Below are positions 14,431 through 60,028 of a DNA stretch of 64,000 nt, in pieces. Source of the DNA: Psammoneis japonica (lineage: Eukaryota); NCBI GenBank assembly GCA_008632985.1, contig QPGO01000027.1, positions 620,001 through 684,000 of the forward strand. The letters run 5' to 3'. The position numbers and the translations under genes are program-made. How positions within the stretch are numbered: the first letter of the stretch is position 1; each line of letters opens with the position of its first letter. Below the pieces are notes generated by a model. It searched no databases and was not told the origin of the DNA. It saw only the letters and a program-made list of their open reading frames with translations.

Positions 14431-14621
14431 GACAGGAGGGGGGGATGTTGCTGGAGCATCTGCTGGCAGCTGCCTCTCTCTCTCTCTCTAAAAAAAAGGG
14501 TGAGTCCAAACAAAGAAACCACTGGAGTGCCAGGGGGGGGGCTCTTGTGGCAATGGGCTGTCCAAGATCCTTCCCCAAGAAAGCATTGTTTTTGCTCTGT
14601 GACAACTCAATGGGCCGGGCT

Positions 14622-36553: not shown

Positions 36554-37269
36554 ACAATGTGCCGAAACATTGTCGGGCTGACATTGCACAGAAATGCCCA
36601 CTGTCACTTTTGCTCCATGCAGCCATTCTAAAGTTCCTTTCAGGTTGATTGTCCAATCGGCATCATTCCCAAACAACAAAACCACACGCGCAAATTTTTG
36701 CACAATTGAAACCCCCGTGATCAAGCCAAGGATGTGATTGCCACCTTAAATGGAAGCATTGAAAGAGCATCCCTCAGCAGTGATTTTCTTGTGCTGGTGA
36801 CACTCTCATCCAGAAGAATTTGACAAAGTGGTGCACAAGCAGTGAAAACAAGCACCAAGACTCACATGATTCCCTTGTTGCACCATGCAGATGGCATGCA
36901 CTTCATGTGTCAGACAAAATTTCTGCTGCCCCCGGAGCATCAGACGTGGTCCCTTCCCAGCACAAATTGACAGTTCCTTGTCACAACATTCTTGTGGACA
37001 AAGCCCACTTTCACCAAATCAAACAATGCATTTCCGACAACTTGCCCGGTTGGATGAATGATCTCCCAGAAAATGAGTCACCTCATCACAACCAATTCCG
37101 CCCAATGATTCCCGGCATCAATGATGAAATGTCCAATGCGGTTCAGTTGATCACTTCCAGGCATCCCTTGATGTGTCCAATGTTTCTCCATCCAGATCAC
37201 AACCTGCCTGCTCCCAACTCCGAGCAGCCACCAGTTTTCCCACCGGTGCCTCAGAACAGGAATGCCCAA

Positions 37270-37600
37270 AGAGGGATCTGACACAGCCGACAGGTTGGCC
37301 GTGGCAGTGGCATCAGCTTTGGTGGATGGTTGCCGGCATGTTGAGCAGAAGAGTGTCCCTGATGCACACCCATCTCACCCGTTTCCTTGTTCACACACTT
37401 GTCACACCAGTGCCAGGTGGTGCCTTTGGCATCGGCGATGGTCACACCTTTGTGGATGAAATGCCAGGCAGGCTTGGATGATTTCTTGGAGGGGTCAGGC
37501 ATCTTGACGCTGCCTGCGGTGTCCAAAGGGTCATCCTTCTGTTGGTCCACTTTGCCCTTCCAGTCTTTCCTGTGCTGGTCCTTGCAGGTGGGACACGTGC
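37270..37600 (-). mobile_element. LTR retrotransposon gag C-terminal relic
   Basis: WHWCDKC......G.H....H His/Cys knuckle preceded by a C..C...H remnant, as in diatom copia gag tails. Confidence 0.4.
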
Positions 37601-38337
37601 TCCTCACTGGGCACAGGCGAGAGCACTCAGCTCTGGCGAAGCAAGCAGACCAAGCTGCCAGGATGGCTCAGCTGCCAGCAGAGCCAGTGGGAGTGCAGTG
37701 CAACAACCAATGGAATGATCAACAGGCTTGTGTCACAACTGCACATGTGCAACAAGTGAGCCCATCAGAACCCTCTCACAGCCATCAAAAAGTTCCCTCC
37801 AAGGACACTTCACTGATGACCTCGCACATGACCTCACACTTGACAAGTTGACTGTCACCAGCAGCACACCAAATTGTGCTCAACACTGCGACATTCACTT
37901 GGCACAAGCTCAGTGTTCAATGCCTTCCAACCCCAGTAGAATTCCATGTGGAGCACCAGAATTGGCGTCAATGTAGATGTGCTTGAGCATTGTGTTTGAG
38001 CACGACAACTGCCGATTTTTCGCTCTCGACGACACCACGATGAGATGCTCCGTCGAATGGGTTTGGCCCCAAGGAAGCTTTTCTGCTTAGCATGAGTGGT
38101 GCCACATTGTCGTTTATATGTGTGGATGATGCTGAGTGGGTCGTGCTAAGTACATTTGCCTCCATCACGCACAGACCGAGTTTGCCATTTCACGTTTGTT
38201 TCGTCGTGCTTTGGAGTCAATCGCTGGTTTAGTCGAATTAATCCCCATATTCACGCCACGGCGCGGCGTTCTTCGTTCCGCCCTCGACCCTCGACGAATT
38301 TTCATTGAAGGCGGCGCATACGATTCGATCGAACATT

Positions 38338-40353: not shown

Positions 40354-40520
40354 CGCGATTGTGTTATTATATTACCTTTACGGTTTGGCCAAATTAGTCA
40401 ATTTTTGGGCCGAAGTGAGCGGAATTCACCCCTCTTTATTCCCCGCGAATCCGCCCCGCTCTCTGTCACAAGACATTATTCAACATACGAGGACGACTAA
40501 GATAATGAAAATACTAAAGG
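38563..40520 (+). repeat. ~1.96-kb near-identical direct repeat, copy 1 (copy 2 at 44981-46953)
   Basis: Identity starts at GGTCAG(T/A)ATCCGCTCGTCGTGG and continues through the 3' flank to AAAATACTAAAGG. Confidence 0.95.
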
Positions 40521-41045
40521 CATTGTCCCGGGGCAGCCGAAGCTGTCCCTGGAGATGTCCCCGAGGCACGGGGCAACTGTGTTGCCACCACATGTTTTGT
40601 CAATGCAGACCATGCTGGTTGTCATGTGACATGACAATCCCACACTGGGATCATCATCTTTGCACAATGGGCTCCAATCTTGTGGTGCTCTAAACGGCAG
40701 AATGCCGCAGAATCCTCAACTTTTGGGTTGGAATTTGTTGCGATGAAAACTGCGGCAGAACAGATCGAAGCTTTGTGTCACAAGCTCTGAATGCTGGGAA
40801 TCCCAGTCGAGGGACCAACCAATGTTTTCTGTGACAATGAGGCTGTGTTCAAGAACTCCAGGCAGCCGGAGTCAACACTCAAGAAGAAGCACAATGCCAT
40901 TGCCTGCAACCGGATGCGCGAGGTGCAAGCTGCTGGCATTGTGCAGATTGCTTGGGAAGATGGGTGCACAAATCTGGCAGATGTTCCAACTGAGCTCATG
41001 CCTGGACCAAAGCTCTGGGAACTCATTCGTCACATCCCATGGTGA
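40521..41045 (+). mobile_element. Ty1/copia (CoDi-like) RNase H relic
   Basis: FVNADHAG..T*QSHTG..APILWCSKRQN..ESSTFG.EFVA..ALCHKL*MLGIPVEGPTNVFCDN..ESTLKKKHNAIAC..RE..AAG..NLAD. Two in-frame TGA stops. Confidence 0.9.
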
Positions 41046-42666
41046 ATTGGCGAGTCCAAAATGGACAGGCCGGGATTTTCCCCTCCAAAATGGAGGAGGT
41101 TTTGCCCATCCCAAATGAAGTTAAGATTGTGCCTGGAACAGGGTGGCAATGCGAACGGCAGGTCATGTCAAACTGACCTGACTGGGCCAGTGTCAGTCAG
41201 CCAAAGGGGGCTGAGCAATTCCAGCCATGCTGTCGCCAAACAAGCATTGGGGCCATTTGGCAAAGACCGCCACTGTCACTCAAACAGTGGGTGGCACATG
41301 TGGAGCAACCCTCACAATTTCTAGAATCCTGTTGATTGCCGCAACAACACTTTTCCATTAGATCTTGTCCAATTCTTGGCAACTGCGGCATGATTTGCTC
41401 AAAAGCATCTTGAAATCTGGGAGGGAGTCAGACCCGTTGCACTCATGGAACGAGAGTTGAAATTTCAGAAATTCATCTGCAATTCTGCAAGCAATGGCAT
41501 GTTCATTGAACACATGCTCCTGAAAACATTTTGACAACTGAGCAGACACAACTCCACATCTCCAATTTCAATCCAACCACATGAGTGAGATTGAACATTC
41601 TAATGACAGTGTCAAAACACCATGGCATTCGGTGGCTCCACTGCGGCCACACGCATGTCAAATCACTGTTCTGACAAGCACAGTTGATTTGCAACAATGT
41701 GATCAACATCACATGTTGTTGTCATGTCCACAGCTGAGGTTTCAGCAACCACATGACGTGTTTTTCTTCTGAAAACAAGGTGTGAAGTTGCCATCATTTT
41801 GTTGTTGGTTGACTTCAATCACGTTGAATTTTGCTGTTCTTTCTTTCATGAACACATCACAACAGCTCCACAGCAACAATTTTTCACATCTCTTGTTGGC
41901 TTGAGTTTGTTGTTGATTGTTGGTTGTCATTTTTGTTTGACACTCTGATGTTTGTTGCCATCATGGATGATGATCAGTCTGTTTTCTCGCACAAAAAATT
42001 GCAGGCAAAAAATGCATGTCTCTGGCAGCCAATTTGTTGCAACGTGTGTTTTTGCACCCCAAAATTGCACCCTGAATTGCCCCCTTTGCCACGAGTGCAA
42101 CGGGTCTCAGAGGTTGGAGGTTGCGCGAGAAATTGCACAGAAATGTGTCAGGTGCTCATTGCGCAGATTTCTGTGTGATGTGAAACCATCCACATCCATG
42201 CAGACCTCTAATCTCCCAAATGCTGGGGAGTGAGAAAAGCCCCCTGCTCCACTCTGCAGCCATCGGGTCTGTCTGTCCTTCATTTCTTTTTGGGACTCCC
42301 ACACCCTCTGATGGCAAACGCATGATTTTTTTCCCAGACACAAGACCCAGCCACACTGCGCACACTTTCAATGCATGCCGGAGGTGCACATCGTGTGTCG
42401 TGTTGTTGGCACGCGTTGAGGAAAGGTTGTGAGCACATTCCATCTGTTGTGTTTGGGAAAAAAATCGTGCATTTGCCCCACCCCTTCACAAGTGGTCCCG
42501 TGGGATGTGGGTGTGGGTGATGTGTGACAACATCATCACATGCATTGAGCTGGATGTGTTCATGCTCTTGCAAATGTGCACATGTTGTCAAGCAAAAACT
42601 CCCATCCCATGGCACCCCCAAATCTTAAGTCGCCTGGAACCACCCTTCGCAAGTGGAGAACATGGC

Positions 42667-44022
42667 TTTGATGTCATGGTGATGCAATGTTCACGCAATG
42701 AATTTTTTGCATGTTGTCATGTCACTTAATTTTGCATTTGTGCACAAATGCCAACAGCAACAGGAAAAATCCTGAACCATGTTCTCCCCTGAATCTCGAG
42801 TCACCTGGAACCGACTGCAGCTAAAGACACTTTTTGACCTTTCTTGCAACCACGAAAAAAGCATGCACGTCACATCAGATCAACCATGATGATGCCATGC
42901 AACTCTTCCCCAATGCCTTCCCAGGACACCGTTCCTGCTGACACTGTCAACAACAACGCTGACCCAACAGGTGATGTTGTCACTTCTGTTCTGAATGGCC
43001 TGATGCGTGCAAAACAAGATGCCACAAACTGACACTGTCATTTTCATGCTCCGCTGCCTCCCACAGATGCTGTCACAAACACCAATGCCGTTCCTGCATT
43101 TCTTTTGACTGGCATGCCTGATGCTGTTGCTCATGCCCTTGGTGCAACAGGTGCTGTTGATGCTGTCATTGCATTGCACCAATGACATCCACTGTCAATT
43201 GCTGCAAACTGACACTTTTGTTTCCATGCTGCACTGCCTCCACCATCACAATTTTCCAAGATGGCACTGCAATTGTCAAGAACGCTCCAGCGATTCTGCC
43301 ATGTGTCGATTCTTCCGTTAAACTTGTGGGCCGCAAATTGGGCGGGTCACTTTCACACGGGGCTTTGTGTGGTGATGTCTTTCATCATGTCCTGTCCTTT
43401 CCTGATGCCCACAACTTGGCTCACACCTCAGTGCTGCTGCAACCACATCAAGACCTTGCTCATTTTGAAAGCATGCCGGGATTGCAGTTGCTGCATTGTG
43501 TTGAGAACAGCGGGGTCGATGACAGGGAGAGCGTTTTGACAGACGCAATGGCAGCAGCAAATCGTTTCTTCCAAGTCGCCCCACAGTGCTTTGAAATGTT
43601 GATGATGTGTCCTGCAACCTTTGCAAAGACACTTTTTCAGTGATTCTCACACCACCAAAAAAACATCTTATTTTGCATGTGTCAGGCCATTCAGAACAGA
43701 AGCAATGGCGTCACCTGTTGGGTCAGTGTCATCATCGACAGTGTCGGCAGGAATGGTGTCCTGGGAAGGCATTGGGGAAGAGTCGCGTGGCATCATCATG
43801 GTCGATCCGATGTGACGTGTGCTTTTTTCGTGGTTGCCAGAAAGGTCAAAAAGTGTCTTTGGCTGGCCAGAGTCAGCTCCAGGCGACTCGAGATTTGGGG
43901 GAGAATGTGGCTCAGGATTTTTCCTGTTGCTGTTGGCATTTGTGTGCAAATGCAAAATTAAGTGACATGACAACATATAAAAAATACATTACGTGAACAT
44001 TGTGCATCACCATGACATCAAA
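42667..44022. mobile_element. Long-TIR (~355 bp) non-autonomous element carrying a host gene fragment (Pack-MULE/foldback-like)
   Basis: Inverted arms at 42667-43021 and 43664-44022 align by eye over their full length. No TSD resolved. Confidence 0.75.
43260..43630 (+). pseudogene. TauD / gamma-butyrobetaine dioxygenase-family fragment
   Basis: LCGDVFH..DAHNLAHTS..LQPHQDLAHFESMPGLQLLHC..ESVLTDAMAAA. HxD motif present, with conserved Tyr positions replaced by C/H. Confidence 0.8.
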
Positions 44023-44369: not shown

Positions 44370-44482
44370 CCTTAGTAGGGCCCTAGCTACTAGCAGCTCT
44401 GCACTGGTCCCCGGCTGTCGCGCTGTCGCTTTCACACGGCTCAACGGCTCTAAGCTTCCACATCAACGCGAGACAAACCACC

Positions 44483-46953: not shown

Positions 46954-47684
46954 GTGCTATTATTTGCCATGCGAGTACGTCTAGTCTTAGTCCATACTTG
47001 CGTGAGCGCAAAGGAAGGAACGACGAAGAAGTTCAAAATGGACACTAACAATCAACGACAAACGACACGAACCGTAGCGTCTCTTTGTGTTTTTGGCAAC
47101 ACTGCGGGATGTGCTGGTAGTCCATCCTTCACGACATGATCACAAAATCACAACACAATGCACAACAAGCAAGAAAGCTCAAATGCCCACACAACTTGAA
47201 CTGCAACTGCAAAACGACATGTCATCTCGAAAGTCAAATCCAGTTGCCATCCACGCTGCTAACTACAATCCACCAGAAAGTACGAGTGCTAATGCAAGCC
47301 ATTCATTGATTGTTTCTTGTGGCAGCAGGTCGGGAGTCACAAAAACTGTGCATGAAGTTCCAGAACCCTCCACACTCGTGGCACCATTGGGTGCCACACA
47401 GACTGGTCATGTGGAGACAACCTAAAATGCGGGTCATGTGCGTGCCACAACCGGGACAAGGGAGTCCATCAAATTCGATGTTGTTGACAGCATGGCATTG
47501 ACTTTGGTGTGCTCGATGCAGGAAATGTTACAATGGGAACGAGGATCACACTCCCATGCAAAGTGACACTTGTTTTGAAAGTGTTGCTGTTGGCACTGCT
47601 TCTTCCTTCATGTCAACTTGCTTTGCATGTGCAATCCAACACACTTTGTCTTCAGCGGGGACTGAATCTCTGGATGGAATGTCC

Positions 47685-47935
47685 CCAAATGAGCTTGACT
47701 CACATGCAGATGCTTGTGTTGCTGGGTCAGCTCATTCATCATTCTCTGCTCCTGACGTGCCATGTCCGTGCGACCACATTCCGACGAGTGCGAACAACTT
47801 CACAAAGTCCCAATGCAGTCAGTTGCCACTGCCTGGATGGATCCTTTGACGGGCCAACCACACTTGCTGATGATGCATGAGGCCATGTGTTTTGGGGACT
47901 GAGTGAAGAACTCACCAATGTGTCTTAATCAACAA
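47685..47935 (+). mobile_element. Ty1/copia (CoDi-like) aspartic protease relic
   Basis: ELDSHADACVAG (family pattern ELDSHADTC..G), then VATAWMDP.TG..HLL..HEAMCFGD in another frame. Confidence 0.7.
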
Positions 47936-49711
47936 AGGAGCGAGCTCAATGCCGGCACTTGAAAAACATCATTCTTCATGCATCGATGTCTCACTTTTGT
48001 CGAAATTGTAAAAAGTGAAGGACCAGTTCAAGGGAGATGCAACCTTGCCAAATGTCCCAAATTGCATGAGTGCATTCCACCTGGGGCTGGAGCAGGCCAC
48101 GCAGATTGACACCGGGGTGTGACCCCTCCTTGGGCATCAACCAAGATGCTCCAAGCAAATTGCCCCCTGCACTCTCATGATGCAGGTTTGTTGGCAATGC
48201 GCAAAAAGAGCTCAGAGTGGACTCAATTGGAAGACCTCAAATGATGCCTGTTCCTGTGCAATGCCATTGTGGGTGCATTTCTTGTGCTTTCGCTTGTGCT
48301 TTCACTTGTGCTTCATGGATGCTCCTTTGCAGGTTTTCTGAAGAGAAATGGAGCTCATCTTCTCCAGAGCAGCACAGGCTGTCTCAGGTGTTCTGCTCAC
48401 AGCACCTGGCTGTGATGGTCGTCAGGCAAAGACTGAAGATGTTGCCTTGGTGGGAGGGCAGGACCCAAATCACCAAGTCATTGTGAAGGGCACAGAGTGG
48501 TCCAGCATGCTGGAAACTCTGGCTAAATCCAACACAGCTTTTTGTTGTCATCTTTGCTTGAAGTTGCCCATGCACCACATGGTGATTCCTGCTGGATCTT
48601 TGCTGGTCAGATCATTGAGATTGGGTGGAAATTGAACATTGCCAGAAATTGGTTGGCAGGCAGCATTTTGAGATGAGCACAAGAGAAAGTTTTGAACACC
48701 AGTGTTTGACAAGCTGAAAGAAAGTGAGGCCTGCTCACATTGGAGGGTGGGCAGATTTTCTGTCCACCCACAAGATGAAGTGCAAGGCAATGGCTGCAAC
48801 TCTTTCTGGACAGCAAGGCTGCATCATTGAGGCACAGAACTTGAAGAGGAGTAGTTGTCGTCAATGTTGCCATTCGCCGTTGCCTTGGTCTTGGCATCAG
48901 CCTGGTTCTCTTCTGTTTCTTTTTCATTTGTCACCGCAGCTTCACCGTTCTCCTCCAGTTCCTTGTTCTCCTCTTTGGTGGAAGATTTTTCTTGGTCTTT
49001 GTCATCATCAAATGCAACTGCACTCATTGCATTGTCAATGTCATCATCACTGTCATTTGCGGCCTGTTCCTCTGCATCTTCAAATTTGGCTAAATCCAGC
49101 CTGACTGCCTTCACAGCGTTCTTCTTGTCTTTGTCCAGGGCACGTTCAAAAGTCTCTTCTTTTGACCCAGACCCAGCCTCAGGATTGATTTGAGCAGAAG
49201 AATCTGTGGCCTTGCTCTCATCATTGGAGACATTCATGCTGGGGCAACACAAGTTGACAACATGATGTAGCCTGGCTTTGACAAAAGAGGGTTGTCAGGT
49301 GTCTCAAGCAAAACTCCTTTCCAACCATGGATGAAAAGGCCACAAAGAACAAAGCAAAGGTGGAAACTTCAGCTGACAGTGGCATGTCCTGTGATTGCCA
49401 ACATGACAAGCAATCAACACCACAGAGAAGACGTTGCAGGTCCATGGAACCAAATTTTGTGAAAGCACAGACACTCACCTGGTCAATGGTCTTGACATGA
49501 TGAAGCTGTGGTTTCTTTTCTTGCTTGCTCTGATGGGATTTCTTGCAATGGAACTGTGCCGCATCCTGACATTGATGGTTGAATTCCACAATCACAGCCA
49601 AAGGCACAGGACAAGGTGCTCCAAAGAGGTCAGAATTGAACTCTGACAGAAACGTGGGGCATGCACAATGGCAACCACAGCACTTCTCCAAAATTTCCTC
49701 GGGGCCTTGTC

Positions 49712-50600
49712 TGACCTCTTTGAGGAAAAGCATTCCTTGGTCAGCCACCTCAAAGTGCCCCGTCTTGTGTCTCTCCGCACCAGCAAAGGCCCCTTTCTCA
49801 TGGCCAAAAAGCTTGCTTTCAAGCAATGACTCAGGCAGTGCCAAGCAGTTGAGCTGGACCAGGGGAAAATCCACCCTTCCCAACTGATGATGGATGATCT
49901 TGGCCAGGACCTCCTTTCCCATGTCTGTTTCACTGAGAAGAAAGATCAAGATCAATGATTGTGCAATGCAGGGGATTTTGGAGAGGATTTTGTTCATCGG
50001 CAGTGAAGCAAAGGCACAGCCAAAGGCATTGACCAGCTGGGCATCAGCCATCAGATCGGTCACGAGCGGCACCTCGCCCTGACTGCAGATCCTCTTGTTC
50101 TCCTCCAGCAAGCATGCAACCTGGGCAAAGAGGAACTCGGTGCTTGATGCATCATCCAGGCAGAATGCCAGACCAAAAGCACATGGAGTGGTGCATTGTT
50201 GCCCCCCGCGTCCAGATCTGATGCAAGCTCCTTGAGGCCCGACCGCACCAGAGCGCCAGATGGACATGGCGGTTTGTGTCGGAGAGCAGGATGTCGAACT
50301 CCCTGGGGGCATTGCACCTGATGATGTGCATGTCGTGGTGCACTTTTTGGATCACAGTGGAGATGCAGTTGAGAGCCACATCAGCCTTGTGGTGGCTGTC
50401 TGCCCTGATCCTCTCCAGATTGTCCAGGCTGATCCGGAGGAGGGCAAGCTTTCTGCTGGTGCAAACGGTCCAGTCCAGTTCTTCAGCAAGGCAGTGATGG
50501 AAGAACGCTCAGAAACAGAGCCCCATTTCTGGGTCCTGGATCACCATGAGGCAGAGTTGGGCATTCTCAAAAGAGATGGTGATCTGCTGGGCCATGCTGG
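49712..50600 (-). pseudogene. Bacterial-type GAF-tail / GGDEF-like / sigma-54 activator AAA+ gene fragment
   Basis: AQQITISFENAQLCLMVIQDPEMGLCF*..LAEELD..LALLRISLDNL..EFDILL, then SETDMGKEVLAKIIH..LNCLALPESLLESKLFGHEKGAFAGA..GHFEVADQGMLFL (degenerate GAFTGA). Contains a stop and a frameshift. Confidence 0.85.
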
Positions 50601-50615
50601 TTGGGTGGTCCCTGT

Positions 50616-51657
50616 TCACCAGGCAAACTCACCGAGCCCCACGCTTTCAACCCGATGTTTGAGATGCACATTGGAGCCATTCACAATGATGATTCCAAGG
50701 CCTGTCTCCACCCCAAAACCATGCAGGGCATCTTCCTCAATTGCAAAAACATGCTCAATGTGATGCATGTGAAGGTTCCTTTTGGCATCGCCCAGGTTGG
50801 CAAAGCTTTCCTTGACAAAGTGACACCTCACAATTGTGTTTTTTGCTCACGCGAGTTCAAACAGATGGAAATGGAATGGTTCTGCCATCCCGATGACTCC
50901 CAGGCATGGTTCCGGTTCTGGAAAGAAGAGCACATGAAGTGGTGGAAAGGTCTTGGTGTCCGGGAAGATCTGCTGATCTTCCATGACCATGCTGAAGATG
51001 AACTTGCCCACTGCTCAAACGCCTGCATTGATGTTGAGTGCATGCACCCCTTCACTGATCCAAATTGTGATGAGATTAAGAGCATTGCCCACTGCAGATG
51101 TTTTGACCTGACTCAGCACCAGGAACACTCCAGTCAGAAGATGGAACATCTCAACCAGGAAACCAAGGAACACTTCATCCCCAACATCATCAAAGCTGCA
51201 TTGGGCCTGACTCGTGCTGCACTCGTGGTGCTTTGTGAAGCCCATCATGAAGAGTGGGTTCCCAAGGCCAAGGACGGAACCAAAGGCGGCATCATTGAAG
51301 CTGAACCTGGAGGAAAAGCTCCCGAGGGATGCAAGAGCAGGGTTGTCATGAATTTCCTGCTGTCGCTGGCCCCTGTCAAGGTTGCATTTTTCCTGCTGCT
51401 TAAGAACAAGCCCAAGCTGGTTGCCAAGACCCAGGATCTGTTCATGGCACATCGTGGCAAGTGTGTGTTCTTCTGCAACCAGGTTGGAGCCATTGGATGC
51501 CACTGCTGCCAACAGGATGAAATTGGCACACCGTTCTGTGTGACCGTAGACTTCAACATGCTGGAAGACAACACCGTCACCATTTGCTGGCACAACTTGA
51601 TGAAGCAGGAGCACATCAAGATCAACAAACTTGATGTGTTCTTCAACAAGCGGCTGA
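50616..51657 (+). pseudogene. glyQS: Bacterial-type alpha2 glycine--tRNA ligase fragment (N-terminus missing)
   Basis: TEP.AFN.MF, CLHPKTMQGIF (YLRPETAQGIF), PFGIAQVGKAF, REFKQMEMEWF, ELAHCS (ELAHYS), IGCHCCQQDEIGTPFCVTVDF (IGRRYRRQDEIGTPFC). Catalytic Arg residues lost and no Tyr in the ORF. Confidence 0.92.
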
Positions 51658-52899
51658 AACTTCATTCTTTAACAGGATTTACAGGGTCAAGCAACAGGGT
51701 TGTTTGATTGTGTTCATCCTGCAAATCCTGTCCAAAATGGCCTTCCAAGGCTGGTCATGCTTTTGCATGGTTCACTCACTGTGAATGATGAGAAATCCCC
51801 TCTTAAAGTCTGCCAGGAAATTGGTGCCCAGGGTGTGGCATGGCACTGCCCCAAATGTGGTGATGACATCAGTGTTGAAACCAGCTTCTGTGCCAGCTGT
51901 GTGCATGATGAGAAGACGGGAAAACTGCCATGGAAAAAGCAGCTGCCAAGAAATGTGCCCTCATGGCCTTCTTCATGCTGATCATCCTTGGTGCTCTTGT
52001 GGGAGTTGGCTGCTTCACAGTGGAGCGCATGCCCTTGTTCAAGGAACAACAGGCCACAAGCCATGTGCAGGGGTTGTGATTTCCGAAAAACAGGGTTTGG
52101 GCTGATTTCTGGTGCAAAACTCACGTAGAAAATTCGTGTGGAATGTCTTGTTCATTGTGCTTTTCCCGTGCTTTGCAAAAAACAGGCCACAACCTCAAGG
52201 AATCGATTGCAGTCATAATTGTTGACACTTTGCGCACTCACTTTTTGATGACAAACACGACGATGTCCACCGTTTGGCAAAATTCCATCATTGGAAAATG
52301 TTTGCCGTGGTGGGACCGTGTTGAAGTGTTGATCGAATTTCTGAAAATGGAGTTTTGAAGTGTTCATGCACAGAATCATGCCACTTGTGTAAAAGTCATC
52401 ATGCAAAGTGTCAATGGTTTCAGGGGAAAACGATTCCTTGAGGTGTCGGTGGAGCAGAGAAGCACGGCAGAAGCACGAGAAAAAAATCGGCCCAAACCCC
52501 AATTTTTGTAACTTTTTCTACGTAGAATTTCTGCGTGATTTTTGTGCCAGTGCACATGGCTTGTTCACTTGGAGGTCATCACCAAGAAGGCAGAGGCCCT
52601 CAAGGTCAAGCTGGACAAGAAGGCTCCCATGGCCCAGGTTGGCAAGATGATTGAGCTCAAGGATCTGAAAGGTCACTACCTGCACAGCAAAATCCTGGAA
52701 CTTGACAACAGCCAGGTTCTGTTGGACATGGGCAACCAGGGCCACAAGACCATTGCCTGTGCCTTGCTGGCAACAAATGTCAGGGTCAGGGCAGATGGTG
52801 CATTTCATGAAAATTTCTGAAGAATTCGGTGGCAAACAGATCCCCTGACCATGATTGCCAGTCATGTTGACACGTCCCTGCCCTTTTCATGTGCTTGCC

Positions 52900-53900
52900 G
52901 GATCAGGGATTTCAGCCCCACAGCCATGAGGAGAACTTGGTGAAGTGCATTTGGTGTGCCCAACCTTGCCACAGCCACAGCAATGTTTGTTGGTGTTGCC
53001 AGCAGTCAGGTTGGACTCTGGGAGTTTGCTGGCTGGGGCAGGCCAATCTTCATCACTGACAAGCTCACCATGGGTCTTGGTGATCCATCCAATGAGACCA
53101 ACAGGTCCAAGTTCCACACAGTCAGTGTCCTTGGGGACCTCCGCGGGGACATGCAAACAACACTTGTGGCATTCCAACCTCTTGACAGAGCCAAGCTTGT
53201 CAAAGACTTGGCAGTTGAAAAACTCAGAGGATGTCTTGGATGCCCCAGTTAAAACAGCAGATCAAGCATCAACCAGCACAGTGCTTGGTCCGTCTGCATG
53301 ATTTTGAGCAGGCGCAGGGCCTCGGTCACAAGCTCGGTGCAATCCTCACCAAGGCATTGATCAAGAGTGAGCTCCTTCAACTTGTTCTTGGCAGCCTCAA
53401 CGTCAATGAGAGCACTGGCGTTGCAGGCATCGAGAGCCATCGCAAGCAGGACAGACCCTGGGAGATCCTTGCAGTTCTTCGTGTGATTGAACTTGGCCTC
53501 AATCTTTTCACAGAAGGTGTCAGTGATGCAGGACTTGATGATGAGTTGCAAAAGCCAATGTCTTCAATCTCACATTGGGTCTCAAGGTCTTCAACAGTGA
53601 AGGTGTGAAGATGATCAAAAAGGTGCATGACCTTGCCATTGACGTTCTTGAGATGGCAGAAGGTTTCTTGTCCATGTGACTCAATTAAGTCCTGGACAGT
53701 CTTGACAGAGTGGTCTTTGTCCAGTTCTGCACTGGAGCCATTGGATGACTCAATCTGACCATTGAACTTGGAGGCAGCAGATGAGGGAAGTTGATCACAA
53801 AGGGATTGCTTGATGGGATCAACAGCTTTCAGATGGTGATGCTGCAAGGCAAAATGGCAGGTGCACTTGTCTTTCTGGCCATGCTTGTCATTCAAAGCAG
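52900..53900 (-). mobile_element. LTR retrotransposon gag relic (copia-like)
   Basis: LPGSVLLAMALDACNAS..D...A...L..L.L..CLGED and a terminal CCGCGKVGH knuckle remnant. Frameshifted. Confidence 0.45.
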
Positions 53901-54519
53901 AACCACCCAGACAGACACTGTGAGAGTGGTGGGTGCCACTGTGAGTTGGCACTGGGATCAAAGGAGTGGGGTTTGTTGAGGCTTGCATGGCAGCAAAGGC
54001 TTCAGCAAACCTCTTGAAGGCATCAGGATCCATGGAAGTGATGGTCACACATGAGGATCATTCGACACAGAAGATCAATCAGTCAAGGAGCTGGGCAGGG
54101 TTGCAACACAGATGATCACCATTGGATTGTGATGCAGAAGATTGCTGTTGGATTGTGACATAGAAGATCGCCATTGGAAGGGATGTTGTCTGTTACAAGA
54201 TGAACAAGTGGCAGCAACTCCATCATGAGTTGACACCGGTGTGTGAATTGGGGTCGCAACCACTTGGGATGCAACAATGCACTGCATGGGATGGAGAGTT
54301 CAGGGCTCTCTTGAGGTTGTAAAACACAGTGCAGAGGATGACAGGATGTGGTTTGGGGCAACAAGATGCACCAAAGATGCGAATTGTGAGAAGATCTCAT
54401 GATGAATTGGAAATGACATCATGACCTGACGGTTGTGTGTGTCACTCTGATTGCTGTTGCCAGTGGCTGCAGTGTGACCGGGGGCATCATCCGTGAATCA
54501 GACTTGACGTTGGTCCTGG

Positions 54520-55170
54520 TCACCTTTGGCAGACTTGACCTGCTCAATCCGCTTGCAGAATTGCACGAACTCAGACACAGTGTGAGCCAACGGGTCAAAA
54601 TTCTGCAGAGTCATGATCTTCTGCCACGCGTTTGGCACTCCGCACTCAAACAAGTCACAGAGTTCATCATTGGGCAATGACTCCGGTGTTTCTCCTCCTT
54701 GTGTCACAGGCAGAAACTGAGAGACACAGCCATTGCTTTCAACAGCTCTCGTGACATGGTCACAAGTGGAAACCTCAGCGGGCTTGCGCGCGAAGCGTTG
54801 CAGATGACGTTTCTGCAGCAGTGCCGCCCTGTGTGGGAATGCACTTTCCTTTGGCTTTGCTGTGCATGCAGCATGCTCAGCGTTGGTTTGAGAAGCCTGC
54901 TCTTCAGCAGCATTGTCAAAGGTTGTCAGGGCATCACCCTCGAGAAGCCTGTGCACAAGTGCATGCTTCGCCGGCCCCACAGAGTGATGGTGTTGCAGAG
55001 AAAAATCAGAAGTTCCTCGCATGTTCCCACAGAAAAGTGTGGCAGACCCATCTTGTGCATTGGACTGTCAGCATCAGCAGGGTCGTTACGCAGCTTGAAT
55101 GTCTGGCACTCACCCTGCTGCATTTCCTTCTTCTCCAGCCACACAAACAGAATCGGCGGCTTGAGATGCT
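54520..55170 (-). mobile_element. LTR retrotransposon gag relic (Ty3/gypsy-like)
   Basis: FKLRNDPADADSP..F..GT.EELL, GPAKHALVHRLLEGDAL, FP.RA..LQKRHLQR..RKP, GVPNAWQ..M..QNFDP..FVQFCKRIE. Confidence 0.55.
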
Positions 55171-55919
55171 TCTTCATGGTGGTTTTTGAGTTTGTCGGTC
55201 CTGCCAGCATGTCTCAGCATTCGTTTTCGTAGATTTTGTAACCTCACACACTGTGCGGGAGCAACATTGCTGTGCCCCATGTGTGCAATGGGCAACAAAA
55301 ATGCAGATGTGTTGCAACTGCATCGATGTGAAAATTGTGAGCTGGTTTGTGTGCAGAGAAATGGAATCGTGCGAATGGGGAATCTTGCCCAATTTGTCAC
55401 ACCAATTGATCGTGCATTCGCATTGTGGATCGTGCAAATCATGCCATCATGCACCATGCATGAGTGATGTCATCATGTGGAATCACGCCACTGTTGTGGG
55501 CCAGACAACAGGTTAGAGTGCTCCACACGGGTGCTCTCTTGGCATCCTTCTAGATTGCCTGAGACATGGAGCCATGCCCTCCTGTGGTGTGCTTCCCAGG
55601 TGCGTGTTGGCAATGCTGTGCTGCCATGCACAAGAGGCTGTGCATGGTTTTGCTGTGTTGTCCAGCACTGAGGCACGCTGCAGATTGATGATCATGCACA
55701 GTCTGTGCAGCTCATGTCCCTCAAAACTCTCTGATCAAGTCTCCATGACTGGCCTCAATTTTTGCACCACACTCTCTTCTTGTTCTGAGTGGGGCCAAGA
55801 AGGAAGCAACAAAAAACACGACCTGCCATTGGCAGAAGTGCTGTGGGAAAAGATCTGATCTTGCATCTCTTGAGCTGTGGCACATGACGCAGATGATCCC
55901 GGTGTCGCTCTCCTGGAGA

Positions 55920-55965
55920 TTCATCGTGGGACCCCACAAATGCGGAGGGACACACAACCCGGAAA
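55920..55965 (+). repeat. Degenerate solo end of the 44118-44369 MITE family
   Basis: TTCATCGTGGGACCCCACAAATGCGGAGGGAC versus the intact TTCATCGTGGGACCCCACAAATACGGAGGGAC. Confidence 0.85.
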
Positions 55966-56461
55966 CAGAGCAATTTTGATTTTTTGCTCATGACGCATGA
56001 GACAACAAAATGAACAAAGATGCCGTTGCGTTTGACACTCTCATTCTAGCTGCTGAAACACTCCTTCAGCAGCATGTTGTGGCACCGATGTCTCTCAAGT
56101 GCATTGTGAACAGTCAAAAGGCAGAGGCTCCAAAACAATGCTGTTCTGCTTCCAACAAGTCTGCTGACAGTTTGCATGCCAATGCTGTTGCTCAGGCAGG
56201 CATGCGACTTGGGAAGGAGCTTGCTGACACCAACCAGGTGGAAACCATGGTTCAACTGAGATGCAGCAGCCATGCGCGAAGAATGACTGATGCTGGGGCT
56301 CAATGCCAAACAGCAAACAGGCAGAGATGGGAGCAGAATCAACAAACGCATGATGAGGAGAATGTGACCGCTGAACAACCCCCCCCCCCCGCGAGTTGGA
56401 AGAAGAAGGGGCAGTTGAGCCTCCACCCACAGCGGAAGGAGAGACAGACCATGAAGTGGAG

Positions 56462-56634
56462 GTGGAAGAGGAAGAAGGTGCTCCTCCAGCTGAGGAGGAA
56501 GAAGCAACTTCACCAGCAGCATCTGCGGAAGAGGAAGGAAAGGAAGAAGAAGAAGGTGCTCCTCCAGCTGAGGAGGAAGAAGCAATGTCAGCAGCAGCTT
56601 CTGTGGAAGAGGAAGGAAAGGAAGAAGAAGGTGC
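56462..56634 (+). repeat. 81-bp tandem repeat encoding a Glu/Ala-rich peptide
   Basis: GAAGAAGGTGCTCCTCCAGCTGAGGAGGAAGAAGCAA occurs twice, with flanking partial units. Confidence 0.7.
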
Positions 56635-59600
56635 CACAACACGCAATCCCTTTGAGCATCCCAAAGACTGTGCACCTAGAAATGAATCAAACATTGGTCA
56701 GCATGATGCGCAGGATCTCAAAAGGAAGAAGAAAGGCACGAACAACATGACTGGAGCCAAGAAAAGATGAAACCTGACGGATCTTCCACAAAGTGCACGA
56801 GCTTCCTTCAACCACAACATGAGAACAAAATTTGGCTGCATGACAAAGAATGCATGCGGTGCACTTGAGCACTGTGCACTCGATCCTGAAAGTGAATCAT
56901 TCACCAAAATCAGCCCAAAAGTCAGGGTGACTCTTGCGATCGAGACTGATGTGAAGCATTTCAAATCAAACAAAGAAGCAGAAAGTGGTTGTCTCACAGA
57001 ATGAGAAAAAGTGGACAAACTCAAAAGGGAGAGGCCGTCACTGATTCTCGCATCCAACAGCAGGGAGGATGCAAGGAGCACCTTCACTGCAGTTGAGTCA
57101 TGCCTGAATGAAGCCAAGCAGTTGTGCAAGGAAAAGGAAGAGGCCGGTGGGACAGCTGGTTTTCTGAGTTGCAGACTGAAGAAGTGCATGAGCTGCATGG
57201 TGTGGGCAATGAAGATGAGGCAGAGGAATTCATGAAAATGGCAGTGGATCCGGGGAAGGAGGGCAAATGGACTGAATCCAACACTGGTCCTCATCAAGCA
57301 CGTGAAAAGCTGATGAGGCGATGGCAATCAAACCCAGTGTGGTGTTGCAACAATGCATGAGTCGCAACAATGTGTGACACAAATGCACCTCTCTGGTTGT
57401 TCTAGTCTGAGACAGTCACATGGATCGCTTCTTTCTTCATGGGCTGGAGAGGCTGACAATGGAAGAATCAATGCTGCCCAGCGTTGAGGCTGACACTTGA
57501 CTGAGCACTTGGTCCTGCGACTGAGACAAGTTCTCATGCTGTGAGGTGGCAAAGTTACGGGAATGATCCACAGCACACTGTTGTTGGCCTCCAGACCTTG
57601 ACTCTGTTGTCCCATGATGGAACGGCATCCTTGTCTGCTTTTTCAGTTGAGCCACATCAATCCCGTCCAATGCATGTTCCTTGTCAAACAATTCTTCCTT
57701 TCTCTTTTTTCTGGCATCGTAAAAACCAGGAACCTTGTTGAGATGCTCTCGAGCCTTTGTCACCATGGTGAGATGCCAGTCTCGAGCAGCAGCACTTTCC
57801 ATGCCCTCAGTGGCCATGTCTGTGGGGAAGGCCCATTCAAATTTCTGCTTCTGTGCCATCCAGGATTCATTTGTTTTGTCTTGTCTCTCAACACCTTGCA
57901 TTCCGCCAAGAGAAATTTTTCAGTGTGCGCACCTTTTATTTTCTTCATCTCTTTCTTGCTGTCAGACATCATCTTCAAGCTCTTCAAGGGTTGCTTGAGG
58001 TGGCTTTGGCAGTGCCTTTTGATTGACAGGGTTGGGGTTGCTCTTGTTGAAGGGATTGGCTTTGTGACAATCAAGGGCAGCCTTTTCTCCCGGTTCTGCA
58101 AGGAAGCAGTTCATGGGATCGACTTGGCACTTCCCTTTTGGTGACCGCAGGTTCCTCCTTTCCAAGAGTTTCCGGTGGACTGTCATGGTGCACTCCCATG
58201 TGGCTCACATCCCACAACTGACAGACCATGGCGCAAAACGTGCAACCAAGATTTAGAGGCCTGTCACTCTTTGAAATGGAATTCAACAAGTGTCGCTTCA
58301 AGAGACGCCCTGGCTCTTCCTTCAGATTCGTGTTGCAGTTCACATTTCTTGCGGCAATGATTTTTTTCACACTCATCTGCATTCTGATGACAGAAAGTGA
58401 CTTCTCAAAGTTGGGTGTGCATTGCAGTGGCATGGTGCATCAACTTTGTTGACACACCTGTCAATGCATTCCTCTTTCAGTTTCAAGCTTCCCAAGTCTT
58501 GCGTGCCGCATCCAATTGAGGTGTCCTTCTGTTGGAATTCTTGGTGTCGATCGGTGCACACAATGGCTCCTTGTTCCGTCTTCTTGAACACCACAAACTT
58601 CTTGAACATGGCTTGATCTTTTTCAGACATGGTGCATTCTCGCTTTGCATCTTCCTCAGCAATCCTCTTGCATCCAGCGGCATTTGCAATCGAAAAGATG
58701 AGCTGATGGAGGATGTTTGCGGCAACAAACATGTCTCCATCTCCATCGCCATGAGACAGTCCAGCTGCAGGCTCCTTTGCTTCTTCCTCCTTGTTCACTG
58801 TCATTTGTGGGGTTGTGAAATGGCATGTGGGAGTGCACCTGTCTGCAACAAGCCTTTTGTCAAGATTGTCCAAACTGATCCCCAGCTGATCACCTTTCTG
58901 AACATCGAGTTGGCGCATGAATTCACTGCCTCGGCAATGTCCTTGTGTCAAACGGAACTTTTTGAGAGGGAGAGACCCCAATTGTGGAAGTGTGAACTCT
59001 TGGCACTTGACGATGACTTGGAAAGGACCTCTGCTGAAGTCCTTTGGAAAGGTGTTGGCTCATTGCTCACAACATTTCTGATGAGCTCTGCACAGACGAA
59101 CGCCTTGTTGCAAATTCTCTTTGTCACGTCTGTCACTTTTCCGTTGTCTTGCTCTCTTGAGCCTGTCATTGGGTGCTCCACAAAAAGACTCAAGAGGCTC
59201 TTGTCATTGTTGGCAAACCCTTGCAGCCAGTCTGTGGAGCCGTTCCAATGGAGAGCCGGATCTCGGCGCGCTTCAGGCTGAACCAAGAAAGCATGAAGTG
59301 CCAAAGCAAGTGAACAAAAATTGGTCCTCACATCTGCAGAGAAACATCCCAACTCAGCTGCCCGCAAATTTACAGAAAACGACCATCCGCGCGCACCAGT
59401 GGCAACTCCTTCCCCCCTGTCGCAACTGCAAAAACCACTCCGCTCTTTTGTTCACGCGAAGGAAGACACAAGAAATCATCAAGAGCTTCAAAGCCGCCAA
59501 TGTCAAAATGTGAGCATGATGACTCTTGCTGTGTGACTCCAGTGCAGGAGCATTTTCTCGAGCTGGCGTGTCTCGGCAAGTGGCGCACTTGTGGCAGTCA

Positions 59601-60028
59601 GCACGGCCATCGCAGCTGGGACAAATGGGCCCTTCACAAAGTCACTGTGCGCGCATTTCTCCAAAGCAGTGCAGGCACAAATGGCGCCCACACGGACGCA
59701 TGGTGAAGTGTGTCTTGCTCTTCAGTGCGCTTCTTGACACGCCACATTTCCACAGCTTTCCTCTGGGGAGGCGGCCTTCCTTTTTGATGACATGATGACC
59801 TTCCACAGTGCCAAACGGTCTTCTCATAGAGTGTGACAAGTGAGTGGAGTAGAGGATTGAACTGCACAACAACTGTGTGCTCTCCATCGGACGCAACAGC
59901 GTTTGTGGTCATGCATCTTTCATCGAGAAAAAATCAAAAAATCAAAATTGCTGCATTTCCGGGTTACGTGTCCCTTCCTCTTGTGCGCTTGTCCGCATTT
60001 GGCTCGCTCACGCACATCCGCGTGTCAC

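Follow-up and report, generated by a model that had tools for sequence, protein, structure and literature searches.

A bacterial-type glycyl-tRNA synthetase fragment marked by TA- and CG-specific transitions in a diatom-type genome

A truncated synthetase gene and its neighbours

The window analyzed here, a 64-kb stretch of DNA, carries at 50616..51657 of the forward strand what homology and composition identify as the remains of a bacterial gene for a dimeric (alpha2) glycyl-tRNA synthetase (GlyRS), a pseudogene that has been hypermutated and has lost its 5' part. The homology lies within about 50616 to 51659 of an open frame of 374 codons (50583-51707, forward strand). When compared with PDB chain 8u2q_A, which has 479 residues, query positions 12-359 aligned with chain positions 148-477 (E 6.6e-70), and NCBIfam model NF003211 was matched at profile positions 137-451 of 454 (1.1e-90), with a score of 304.7 bits, under the cut-off of 312. 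Of the two Pfam models matched, PF03129 exceeded its cut-off (1.4e-5; 25.6 vs 21), while PF00587 fell below (1e-4; 22.9 vs 29.3). Judged from these alignments, the GlyRS homology is beyond doubt despite the sub-cut-off scores. The fragment thus shares with bacterial dimeric glycine--tRNA ligases (NF003211 / PRK04173; PDB 8u2q, 1ati) the catalytic core, here from about family position 137 onwards, and the anticodon-binding domain, but differs from them in being truncated, in scoring under the family cut-off and in having had invariant residues destroyed.

The initial annotation, made from the DNA letters, had read this stretch as about 345 codons of a bacterial GlyRS with no stop, frameshift or indel and without a single Tyr. 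Indeed, the 345 aligned codons hold 0 stops, 0 frameshifts and 0 Tyr, as compared with 11-16 Tyr over the same 345 aligned residues of 25 homologues. In the same comparison, Cys (20 vs 3-7), His (23 vs 6-11), Lys (31 vs 11-22) and Met (14 vs 5-10) lie above the homologue range and Arg below it (8 vs 23-33). The absence of indels holds inside the fragment but not for the gene as a whole, as some 136-147 N-terminal codons are missing, making this a partial gene. None of the 14 columns in which Tyr is the majority residue kept it (7 became Cys, 4 His and 3 Phe), Arg was lost from 20 of 24 Arg-majority columns, with 17 of the 24 now His, Cys or Gln, and 47 of 180 family-conserved columns were altered. 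On this sequence evidence, the fragment is a dead relic and not an enzyme. In a random frame of the TA- and CG-depleted DNA described below, about 10.4 stops would be expected per 374 codons, with a probability of about 3e-5 of finding none. Because a chance frame of such length is improbable, the frame should be considered an old ORF, and it is still open because the mutation spectrum yields an in-frame stop only from CGA.

The closest relatives of the fragment are Kiritimatiellia-type GlyRS proteins, at 57-60% identity. When the signature changes described in the next section are reverted, this identity rises to 76-77%, which is an upper bound, while the same homologues share 66-81% among themselves. 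The upstream neighbour on the opposite strand is the remnant of a sigma-54 activator with an AAA+ domain (49224..50351, reverse strand; PF00158, 2.5e-28; 24 NCBIfam sigma-54 activator models, the best at 9.3e-33). Since the match in this frame covers no more than positions 7-108 of the 168-position profile, the pseudogene is probably frameshifted or truncated. As sigma-54 activators are a type of regulator found in bacteria only, this adjoining remnant, together with the Kiritimatiellia-type relatives, supports a bacterial origin of the GlyRS fragment, in agreement with the bacterial assignment made initially. A possible receiver-domain remnant lies at 50155-50508 on the reverse strand (a weak match, DgcA N-terminus, 0.0017). 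Directly 3' of the GlyRS fragment, a short frame (51673..51981, forward strand) with a weak, below-cut-off match to a double zinc ribbon (PF12773, 1.1e-4) may be a third bacterial remnant. A synteny search of the window with 4737 ORFs from 80 bacterial loci returned only GlyRS and generic sigma-54 activator matches. Likewise, Pfam found only GlyRS, Sigma54_activat, TauD and weak Plavaka and DZR matches in 189 stop-to-stop frames of the depleted blocks, NCBIfam gave nothing beyond GlyRS and sigma-54 in 31 frames of 47-59 kb, and Rfam and tRNA scans of the 64-kb window gave no matches.

Substitutions at TA and CG dinucleotides

The bacterial relatives among the matches listed are 47-58% identical to the query and are thus too distant for codon-level DNA alignment, so substitutions were classed at amino acid columns, namely the 180 that are conserved in at least 90% of the homologues. 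At these columns, 40 of the 47 mismatches are fully explained by TA>TG/CA or CG>TG/CA. The 50 underlying events comprise CG>CA (21), CG>TG (11), TA>TG (7), TA>CA (4), other transitions (4) and transversions (3), such that CG>TG/CA contributes 32 and TA-type events 11. Four fake context rules account for 17, 7, 3 and 0 of the 47 mismatches. When the real rule was applied to eight intact GlyRS genes from bacteria, it accounted for 6/42, 3/44, 4/41, 0/22, 2/43, 6/49, 3/49 and 0/30 mismatches, i.e., 0-14%. As the initial annotation had proposed, the changes are therefore concentrated at TA and CG rather than spread evenly over contexts, and both of its examples, YLRPETAQG>CLHPKTMQG and IGRRYRRQDE>IGCHCCQQDE, are visible in the alignment. 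The sigma-54 activator pseudogene serves as a small replicate, with 9 mismatches at 32 conserved columns, 5 of which are explained by the signature.

Dinucleotide counts present the same picture. Positions 50616-51657 contain 3 TA, 21 CG, 111 TG and 111 CA, as compared with 14-60, 23-129, 53-90 and 56-75, respectively, in an equally long part of each of the eight bacterial genes, while the total of all four YR dinucleotides has been kept (246 vs 243-278). Both strands were mutated within the one gene, as seen from the presence of both products of each dinucleotide. Non-signature changes affect only 7 of the 180 conserved codons. With no frameshift and with 11 of 14 Tyr columns changed to Cys or His, in addition to the Arg columns listed above, this bears out the earlier suggestion of a process that is fast relative to neutral decay. 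Two further features are trends only: in a test of the TA flank preference discussed below, Tyr codons preceded by a purine became His 3 times and Cys 2 times, as compared with 1 His and 5 Cys after a pyrimidine, and the mutation events show some strand-run structure.

One should consider that such a pattern might be apparent only, either as a sequencing or assembly artefact in which modified bases are miscalled as TG or CA, or as a live Tyr-free protein, perhaps RNA-edited. Some long-read basecallers do miscall systematically at modified motifs, and the frame is open over 374 codons. Nonetheless, the sequence of 46924-52115 recurs in k-mer contigs from a public run, X1, with only 9 differing letters in 5195, and the open frame is accounted for by the mutation spectrum. 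Moreover, a live gene would have to function without its first ~140 codons and with 47 of 180 family-invariant positions lost, including 20/24 Arg-majority and 14/14 Tyr-majority columns, and no protein of more than 60% identity was found among 8000 scored candidates. We consider both versions of this explanation extremely improbable.

Three other candidates were dropped, namely biased gene conversion, as AA, TT and AT are unaffected, selection against UpA and CpG in RNA, as the gene itself has been destroyed, and ADAR-type editing of an RNA that was then reverse-transcribed, as both strands are altered and the blocks abut genes.

The nearest precedent, a TpA process that is almost identical, is described in the accessible text of a preprint on the chlorarachniophyte Bigelowiella natans, in which integrated NCLDV and virophage DNA undergoes TpA-specific hypermutation (Mettrop et al., bioRxiv 10.64898/2026.01.13.699255, 2026). 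According to that text, two viral integrations, both single-copy, were followed in mutation-accumulation lines, and every GC-biased mutation in them fell at TpA. The rate was about 6e-7 per site and generation, or some 1000x the background. The genome also contains 124 clusters poor in TpA and rich in CpA and TpG, in which transposon, viral and bacterial domains are over-represented (10.64898/2026.01.13.699255).

Depleted blocks, copy number and repeats

The GlyRS fragment lies in one of five TA- and CG-depleted blocks, recognized by observed/expected (o/e) ratios, that occupy 37 kb of the 64-kb window and alternate sharply with normal blocks, with borders resolved to about 100-200 nt. The first block lies at the left end of the window (1..1700). 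The largest, at 4450..20400, holds an inverted pair of Plavaka/KDZ-like transposon remnants (6651-8048 and 14622-16348). A third lies at 34000..37900, and a fourth, at 40650..43850, contains a TauD-like fragment (43161-43640) flanked by inverted repeats of 360 nt. The fifth, the 12.5-kb block of the GlyRS fragment (47350..59800), presents a TA o/e of 0.00-0.11 and a CG o/e of 0.11-0.53 in all sixteen of its 750-nt windows. Pooled depleted DNA (37.2 kb) shows o/e values of 0.04 for TA, 0.27 for CG, 1.80 for TG and 1.71 for CA, as compared with 0.53, 0.95, 1.17 and 1.15 in normal DNA (25.1 kb). While the normal blocks contain long intact ORFs with diatom-type domains, such as a DBP10 helicase with 59-67% identity to pennate-diatom proteins, the depleted blocks contain bacterial genes and transposon remains, and the island around the GlyRS fragment is free of genes and contains transposon remains as well. 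As TAA and TAG are gone, long spurious ORFs appear in each of the six frames of the depleted blocks, and gene callers are liable to be misled by them. No 1-kb window with a TA o/e below 0.4 was found in 158,677 nt of DBP10-flanking DNA from 22 diatom-like metagenome contigs. The depletion was thus not seen in other diatoms, although these contigs are gene-dense and so provide weak evidence on this point.

The hypermutated bacterial DNA appears to be single-copy. The 5195-nt X1 contig over 46924-52115 runs across the border from normal into depleted DNA, spans both bacterial pseudogenes and has a depth of 61.6, as compared with 59.2 for other single contigs and summed depths of 1000-4200 for the neighbouring repeats. 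No second contig was found at 85% likeness or more over this stretch, although an independently hypermutated copy, about 85% alike, could be partly missed, and the single-copy status was read from contigs of one sample, possibly the very data from which the assembly was made. Runs X2 and X3 provide little cover of the depleted block. Within this limit, the expectation that the process also hits non-repetitive foreign DNA was supported. The same depleted block also contains multi-copy repeat families (52005..56006; summed depth up to about 4200 vs a baseline of about 60), the copies of which differ mainly by transitions. The two Plavaka-like copies differ by 155 transitions and 40 transversions, with CA in one against TG in the other at the same site being the commonest dinucleotide difference (39 times), which implies that mutation proceeded independently in the two copies. 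A 2-kb gene duplicate in normal blocks (38563..40520, forward strand, and 44981-46953), 98.2% identical and 4.5 kb apart, provides a negative control within the window, with 10 transitions, 11 transversions and no hypermutation.

These data bear on a repeat-induced defence, in which duplication would be the trigger and the bacterial piece would have been reached by spreading from the adjoining ~70-copy repeats or would once have been duplicated itself. Fungal repeat-induced point mutation (RIP), as known from ascomycetes, changes C to T mainly at CpA, creates TpA and requires duplication. Our blocks are like RIP in their near-saturating transitions, killed transposons, sharp borders and few indels, and in that repeat copies are altered independently of one another. 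The high-copy repeats begin near 52005, which is 350 nt beyond the GlyRS fragment, and a second copy about 85% alike, if independently mutated, could have escaped the 85% threshold. Nonetheless, the dinucleotide context is opposite to that of RIP, since TpA is removed here, for which A>G or T>C is needed. The single-copy piece was altered while the 98.2%-identical duplicate was spared, and along the 4.8-kb single-copy stretch the TA o/e (0.08, 0.02, 0.06, 0.00, 0.02, 0.11) is flat, with no gradient from the repeats. For these reasons, the process should not be considered repeat-triggered, and an explanation of the RIP kind is, in our view, distinctly unlikely. In its favour, diatoms possess DNMT4 enzymes related to fungal RID, of unknown function in the accessible text of PMC9998398, while the B. 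natans process is described as targeting single-copy DNA, which argues against it (10.64898/2026.01.13.699255).

A comparison of the window with the X1 contig also speaks to timing. Of the listed differences in 47336-52004, 5 of 8 are CG or TA against TG or CA, as compared with 2 of 13 for the normal gene next to this stretch, a hint that hypermutation is still in progress. If the DNA had instead been edited only once, as an extrachromosomal or single-stranded molecule before or during integration, and had then remained stable, such polymorphic sites would not be expected, nor would alteration of both strands inside one gene or blocks that cross elements of varied kind and copy number at a uniform TA level and end at gene ends. 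Long-integrated B. natans DNA, moreover, mutates in culture (10.64898/2026.01.13.699255). While editing at entry suits the saturation of the GlyRS fragment without indels, the individual pattern of every transposon copy and the rearrangement of the bacterial pieces, with the GlyRS 5' end lost at the sigma-54 junction as fragment capture predicts, we regard it as very unlikely.

Two processes and their relation to known systems

The TA and CG losses do not run in parallel. In all 48 of the 750-nt windows of depleted DNA, the TA o/e is 0.00-0.12, whereas the CG o/e ranges from 0.00 to 0.63. Moreover, the 107 surviving TAs are preceded by T in 52%, C in 27% and A in 6% of cases and followed by A in 54%, G in 25% and T in 7%, as compared with 21%-30% for each flank base in normal DNA, while no such bias is seen around the 611 CGs that remain. 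TA loss is thus uniform and favours TAY/RTA, a rule that is read from survivors and could partly reflect how TAs newly arise, while CG loss is variable and without flank preference. From this difference, the two losses are probably the work of two processes. The initial annotation had described one mutational signature; its dinucleotide specificity stands, while its singleness gives way to probably two components, with the flank preference belonging to the TA part.

Methyl-CpG decay in methylated transposon islands is known from vertebrates and plants, and transposon methylation is known in diatoms. Such decay resembles the CG component here, in which CG>TG/CA is limited to silent islands, lacks flank preference and varies in degree, but it cannot remove TA, which is the faster and more complete component. 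One could nonetheless explain both losses by passive chemistry, with no dedicated mutator, if heterochromatin carried 5mC at CG and a mark on T or A at TpA (e.g., of the hydroxymethyl-uracil or N6-methyl-adenine type), the slow decay or mis-repair of which gave transitions. The flank-independent CG loss that differs between blocks is what methyl-CpG decay predicts, the steady-state ratio of CG to TG and CA (611:8152) calls for only a ~13-fold rate excess, and sharp borders at gene ends suit chromatin domains. We know of no TpA-specific mutagenic modification in diatoms, however, and our literature search found none either. TA is saturated even in places where little CG has been lost (CG o/e 0.63 at 10450-11200). 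As this saturation is found everywhere with minimal background change (7/180 codons), the TA rate must be at least ~76x that of ordinary transitions (107:8152). In B. natans, the process was on in only 11 of 15 lines, which suggests regulation (10.64898/2026.01.13.699255). Passive chemistry is, accordingly, an explanation that we consider unlikely.

We consider it probable that a Kiritimatiellia-like insert in a diatom-type nuclear genome was hypermutated in place and block by block at TA and CG, through a fast TpA process and a slower methyl-CpG decay, with silent foreign or transposon DNA as the target. The data show that a fragment of a Kiritimatiellia-like chromosome entered a diatom-type nuclear genome, with GlyRS lacking its first ~140 codons and joined to the sigma-54 activator gene. 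They also show that transitions in place turned almost every TA and most CG into TG or CA on both strands with few other substitutions, altering the five blocks alike, sparing the intact genes between them and affecting repeat copies independently. The first process would be a fast A>G change at TpA, targeted by chromatin or origin, with TAY sites (RTA when read from the opposite strand) affected most and TTAA-like sites least. In its simplest form, and by analogy with the proposal for B. natans, adenine might be deaminated to inosine in DNA by an ADAT2/TadA-like or other deaminase. The second would be decay of methylated CpG, slower and independent of the flanking bases. Silent DNA of foreign or transposon origin would be targeted in its own right, rather than repeats per se.

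With the B. natans process, as far as the accessible preprint text describes it, our example shares TpA>TpG/CpA changes on both strands, TpA loss with CpA and TpG gain, restriction to foreign or transposon blocks with host genes spared, the possibility of a single-copy target and bacterial-type domains in the footprints. Several differences should be noted. The host here is a diatom-type stramenopile, over half of the 64-kb window is affected and depletion is near-total (TA o/e of 0.04 vs a Rho of 0.45 in the NCLDV region there). A TAY/RTA flank preference is seen here, while none is reported in that text, and the process was followed per generation there, whereas here it is read from its footprint. 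CG is also lost here (32/50 events; CG o/e of 0.27), while the term 'CpG' occurs 0 times in the accessible preprint text. The lack of CG loss in that report may mean that a different process is at work, or that a single enzyme here acts on A as well as C.

Only one report so far, the 2026 chlorarachniophyte preprint, presents A>G hypermutation as a natural means of genome defence in nuclear DNA, and our search of open-access papers and bioRxiv found no report of this signature in diatoms. A saturated diatom-type example would extend the phenomenon to a second major algal lineage. It would add the TAY/RTA flank rule, the separability of the TA process from CpG decay, and the finding that silent or foreign DNA is followed rather than repeats. 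As a dead housekeeping gene has thousands of intact relatives, the direction of every change can be known without an outgroup genome, making specificity directly measurable, and a simple screen for Tyr-free, Cys/His-rich pseudogenes in other assemblies suggests itself. We tentatively propose, as a possibility that falls short of probable, that the TA process may represent a dedicated, chromatin-guided DNA-editing defence, common to stramenopiles and rhizarians or arisen twice, that deaminates adenine at TpA, with TAY preferred, in silent foreign and transposon DNA, and that in this diatom would be saturated over most non-genic DNA, erasing all Tyr codons and TAA and TAG stops. If so, dead bacterial genes would serve as polarised recorders of its editing specificity.

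A truncated bacterial gene in apparently single-copy DNA

An open frame of 374 codons, 50583-51707(+), shows homology to the dimeric glycyl-tRNA synthetase (GlyRS) of bacteria between about 50616 and 51659; the first ~140 codons of the gene are missing. It matches PDB chain 8u2q_A (E-value 6.6e-70; query 12-359 against chain residues 148-477) and NCBIfam NF003211 (1.1e-90), the latter over profile positions 137-451 of 454 only and with 304.7 bits, below the 312-bit cut-off. Pfam gave PF03129 (1.4e-5) and, under the cut-off, PF00587 (1e-4). Among 8000 scored candidates from a collection of 5.8 billion proteins, the closest were 57-60% identical, the named top relatives being Kiritimatiellia or other PVC-group/Planctomycetota bacteria, and none carried the pseudogene's own residues. 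Directly upstream, on the opposite strand, the fragment adjoins a hypermutated sigma-54-dependent activator (PF00158, 2.5e-28; 24 NCBIfam activator models match), a regulator type known only from bacteria. Given this neighbor and the missing codons, the insert is rearranged or truncated bacterial DNA rather than a duplicated host gene, and the bacterial origin proposed in the initial annotation holds.

Copy number was estimated from the contigs of one public sample, of which one run, X1, contains 86% of the sampled words. A single X1 contig (5195 nt, depth 61.6, 9 other letters) spans 46924-52115, joining a normal gene to the TA- and CG-depleted block and taking in both bacterial pseudogenes; no second contig of at least 85% likeness was found in that sample for 47336-52004. 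Other single contigs have a depth of 59.2, and a 98% gene duplicate has 104.8 (~2x). At 52005-52671 and 54006-56006, contig depth sums to 1000-4200, and diverged repeat-copy contigs number 190, 231, 474 and 296 at ≥99, 95-99, 90-95 and <90% likeness, respectively, and transitions make up most of their differences (A>G 165, T>C 153, C>T 135, G>A 130; transversion classes 5-19 each). As far as these one-sample contigs tell, possibly drawn from the assembly's own data and with an independently hypermutated twin expected to be only ~85% alike, the GlyRS piece is single copy next to high-copy repeats, in line with the earlier view that apparently non-repetitive foreign DNA was hit. A rival explanation is that the fragment represents an artefact or a live gene; an error of base calling is improbable, since contigs built from k-mers give the same sequence.

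The substitution signature and the open frame

The fragment had been described as Tyr-free, with changes mostly of the types TA>TG, TA>CA, CG>TG and CG>CA (the signature), and this description stood up to controls. When the translation was aligned to its 25 closest homologues (345 aligned residues), the pseudogene presented no Tyr (11-16 in the homologues), 20 Cys (3-7), 23 His (6-11), 8 Arg (23-33), 31 Lys (11-22) and 14 Met (5-10). Of 180 columns in which 90% or more of the homologues agree, it matched at 133 and differed at 47, 40 of which are accounted for by the signature alone, counting codon-boundary cases such as C/GAA>C/AAA (Glu>Lys). Classified by context, the events in these columns are CG>CA 21, CG>TG 11, TA>TG 7 and TA>CA 4, with 4 other transitions and 3 transversions. 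As a search for explanations of mismatches leans toward the signature, two kinds of control were run. Four fake context rules accounted for 17, 7, 3 and 0 of the 47 mismatches, the score of 17 being due to ambiguous CGC contexts, while the real rule applied to eight intact bacterial GlyRS genes accounted for 6/42, 3/44, 4/41, 0/22, 2/43, 6/49, 3/49 and 0/30.

Base composition shows the same shift. The region 50616-51657 contains 3 TA, 21 CG, 111 TG and 111 CA dinucleotides, as compared with 14-60, 23-129, 53-90 and 56-75 in an equal-sized part of eight bacterial GlyRS genes, with the total of the four unchanged (246 versus 243-278). With signature reversions allowed, identity to the nearest homologues goes up from 58% to at most 76-77%, a value within the 66-81% seen among the homologues themselves; this gain implies that the process changed ~60 of 343 codons.

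A random frame of depleted DNA meets a stop every ~36 codons, nearly always TGA (1903 TGA, 114 TAA and 56 TAG in 74,388 codons), and the probability of no stop in 374 codons is ~3e-5. The open frame, in which neither stop nor frameshift was found, as first noted, is thus the old ORF. It survives without selection because the spectrum removes TAA and TAG and creates in-frame TGA only from CGA, which is scarce in the relatives' segments (0-10 each; 0-1 in five of eight). With non-signature changes at only 7 of 180 conserved codons and no frameshift, little ordinary decay has happened, which supports the fast process originally proposed. Because TAA and TAG are lost, each of the six frames of depleted DNA also acquires long ORFs that are spurious; 18 stop-free runs reach 200 codons or more. 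Two overlapping opposite-strand frames within a depleted block, 8895-10013(+) (373 codons) and 9162-10109(-) (316 codons), gave no family match; one of the two probably represents a further dead gene.

Behavior of the process across the window

Five depleted blocks, at 1-1700, 4450-20400, 34000-37900, 40650-43850 and 47350-59800 (the last containing the GlyRS fragment), total 37.2 kb, with borders placed to within 100-200 nt, near gene ends. Their pooled observed/expected (o/e) ratios are TA 0.04, CG 0.27, TG 1.80 and CA 1.71, versus 0.53, 0.95, 1.17 and 1.15 in the 25.1 kb of intervening normal DNA. Long ORFs, intact and free of introns, occupy the normal blocks; they encode DUF6824, nine helicase-associated (HA) domains, a DEAD-box helicase of the DBP10 type, chromo together with JmjC-like cupin domains, and an endonuclease/exonuclease/phosphatase domain. 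Pennate diatoms (Nitzschia, Pseudo-nitzschia, Cylindrotheca, Fistulifera, Seminavis) have proteins 59-67% identical to this helicase, which marks the host as a diatom-type stramenopile with no near relative among the named entries of the protein collection. In 22 diatom-like, gene-dense metagenome contigs at this gene (158,677 nt), overall o/e was 0.54-0.83 for TA and 0.60-1.10 for CG, and no 1-kb window had TA o/e below 0.4. By this comparison the normal blocks are ordinary diatom DNA and it is the depleted ones that are anomalous, a phenomenon not seen in the other diatoms represented by these contigs, gene-dense as they are. The nine-HA-domain gene, 20657-23011(-), is intact (784 aa, internal DNA repeats 66-72% alike), ends at its 3' side within ~250 nt of a depleted block, and is an ordinary diatom-type expansion. 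A very TA-rich stretch at 4001-4300 (36 TA in 250 nt) borders a block without any TA.

A repeat-triggered, RIP-like process with spreading is a rival explanation that should be considered, given the neighboring repeats. Against a repeat trigger stands the 2-kb gene duplicate 38563-40520/44981-46953 in normal blocks, which is 98.2% identical with an ordinary spectrum (10 transitions, 11 transversions); duplication as such does not trigger the process. The genes concerned, 38305-40353(+) and 44483-46765(+) (682 and 760 aa), have no Pfam family; feature-search leads were AAA+ ATPase-like clusters (0.95-0.96) and Crinkler (0.91). Just upstream of one, at 44001-44667, summed contig depth is ~1170, so that part of the duplicate unit is multi-copy yet not hypermutated. 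Against spreading, TA o/e is flat over the single-copy stretch, successive 750-nt windows from 47350 giving 0.08, 0.02, 0.06, 0.00, 0.02 and 0.11, with no gradient.

Repeat copies were mutated independently. Two inverted Plavaka/KDZ-type transposon remnants, 6651-8048 and 14622-16348 (~85% identical, with a ~346-nt indel; frames 6626-7246(-) and 15849-16349(+) match PF18759 at 1.7e-4 and 5.2e-5, both below cut-off), are set apart by 155 transitions and 40 transversions. The dinucleotide difference found most often between them is CA versus TG at one site (39 cases), as expected if a palindromic TA or CG was converted on one strand in the first copy and on the other strand in the second. Fungal transposons of this class are said to travel with TET/JBP genes. 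At a block border, a fragment of a TauD/TfdA-like dioxygenase, 43161-43640(+) (PF02668, 1.4e-6), lies between 360-nt inverted repeats (42667-43021/43664-44022; 87% alike, with 36 transitions and 3 transversions); the unit could be a small element bounded by terminal inverted repeats.

TA o/e was 0.00-0.12 in 48 of 48 windows, with CG o/e ranging from 0.00 to 0.63. Most of the 107 TAs that survive fit YTAR (5' flank T 52%, C 27%, G 15%, A 6%; 3' flank A 54%, G 25%, C 14%, T 7%; 21-30% each in normal DNA), and no flank bias is seen at the 611 CGs that remain. Read strand by strand, these flanks point to A>G occurring best at T-A-T and T-A-C and poorest at T-A-A, making Tyr codons (TAY) ideal targets and explaining their complete loss. 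Tyr fates were 5 Cys and 1 His after a pyrimidine, and 2 Cys and 3 His after a purine, a trend that is not significant. TG and CA are over-dispersed across the 48 windows (chi-square 94.6, 48 df), with strong asymmetry at 5200-5950 (TG 121, CA 50); original composition or strand-biased episodes could be the source.

If the blocks are close to steady state, 107 TA versus 8152 TG+CA gives a TA decay of at least ~76x the ordinary transition rate, and 611 CG gives ~13x, typical of methyl-CpG. At 10450-11200 and 51850-52600, TA o/e is 0.11 and CG only mildly down (0.63 and 0.53), and at 12700-14200 and 34750-36250 both are near zero; such contrasts are the clearest sign of separate clocks. The signature is thus probably the product of two processes, passive decay of modified bases being a rival. 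The process seems not yet finished: between window and X1 contig, five of eight listed differences in 47336-52004 set CG or TA against TG or CA, versus 2/13 signature-type differences in the neighboring normal gene. These differences speak against one-off editing at entry, another rival explanation.

Proposed mechanism and known systems

Direction, context, regional confinement, action on both strands, copy independence and single-copy bacterial DNA as a target are shown by the data. The mechanism we propose would combine a fast A>G process that acts at TpA and targets silent chromatin of foreign or transposon DNA with slower methylated-CpG decay superimposed on it; adenine deamination to inosine in DNA would be the most economical TpA chemistry. 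We lean moderately toward this two-process, deaminase-type defence. A single enzyme acting on A and C alike is possible; a T-modification route for the TpA changes is conceivable, though nothing observed here points to it.

The closest known case is Bigelowiella natans, described in a 2026 preprint (bioRxiv 10.64898/2026.01.13.699255). Its mutation-accumulation lines had 302 nuclear mutations, of which 231 lay within two regions of integrated viral DNA; nearly all of these were A>G or T>C and every one was at TpA, with a rate of ~6e-7 per site per generation (~1000x background), and they arose in 11 of the 15 lines. Of the two regions, the larger one is single copy and silent in transcription. 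The genome also contains 124 clusters that are poor in TpA and rich in CpA+TpG, with an enrichment of transposon, viral and some bacterial domains; the agent proposed is an ADAT2-like deaminase. The TpA rule, regionality and single-copy target are shared with the present case, whereas the host lineage differs, depletion here is at TA o/e 0.04 versus Rho 0.45 for the NCLDV region there, and CG loss and flank preference are added; neither CpG nor diatoms appear in the text of the preprint. Fungal RIP has a like outcome but differs in context and duplication trigger. Diatom DNMT4 enzymes are described as related to the RIP factor RID and of unknown function (PMC9998398), and this analysis gave no link between them and the present process. 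Full-text literature (open-access papers and bioRxiv) yielded no report of the signature in diatoms.

The initial interpretation is thus supported, with the refinements that the relic is truncated and lies beside a second bacterial pseudogene, that probably two processes are at work, that the TA one prefers TAY/RTA, and that there is a precedent in another alga. The phenomenon has been described only recently, and this case is of clear interest to researchers of mutation and genome defence.
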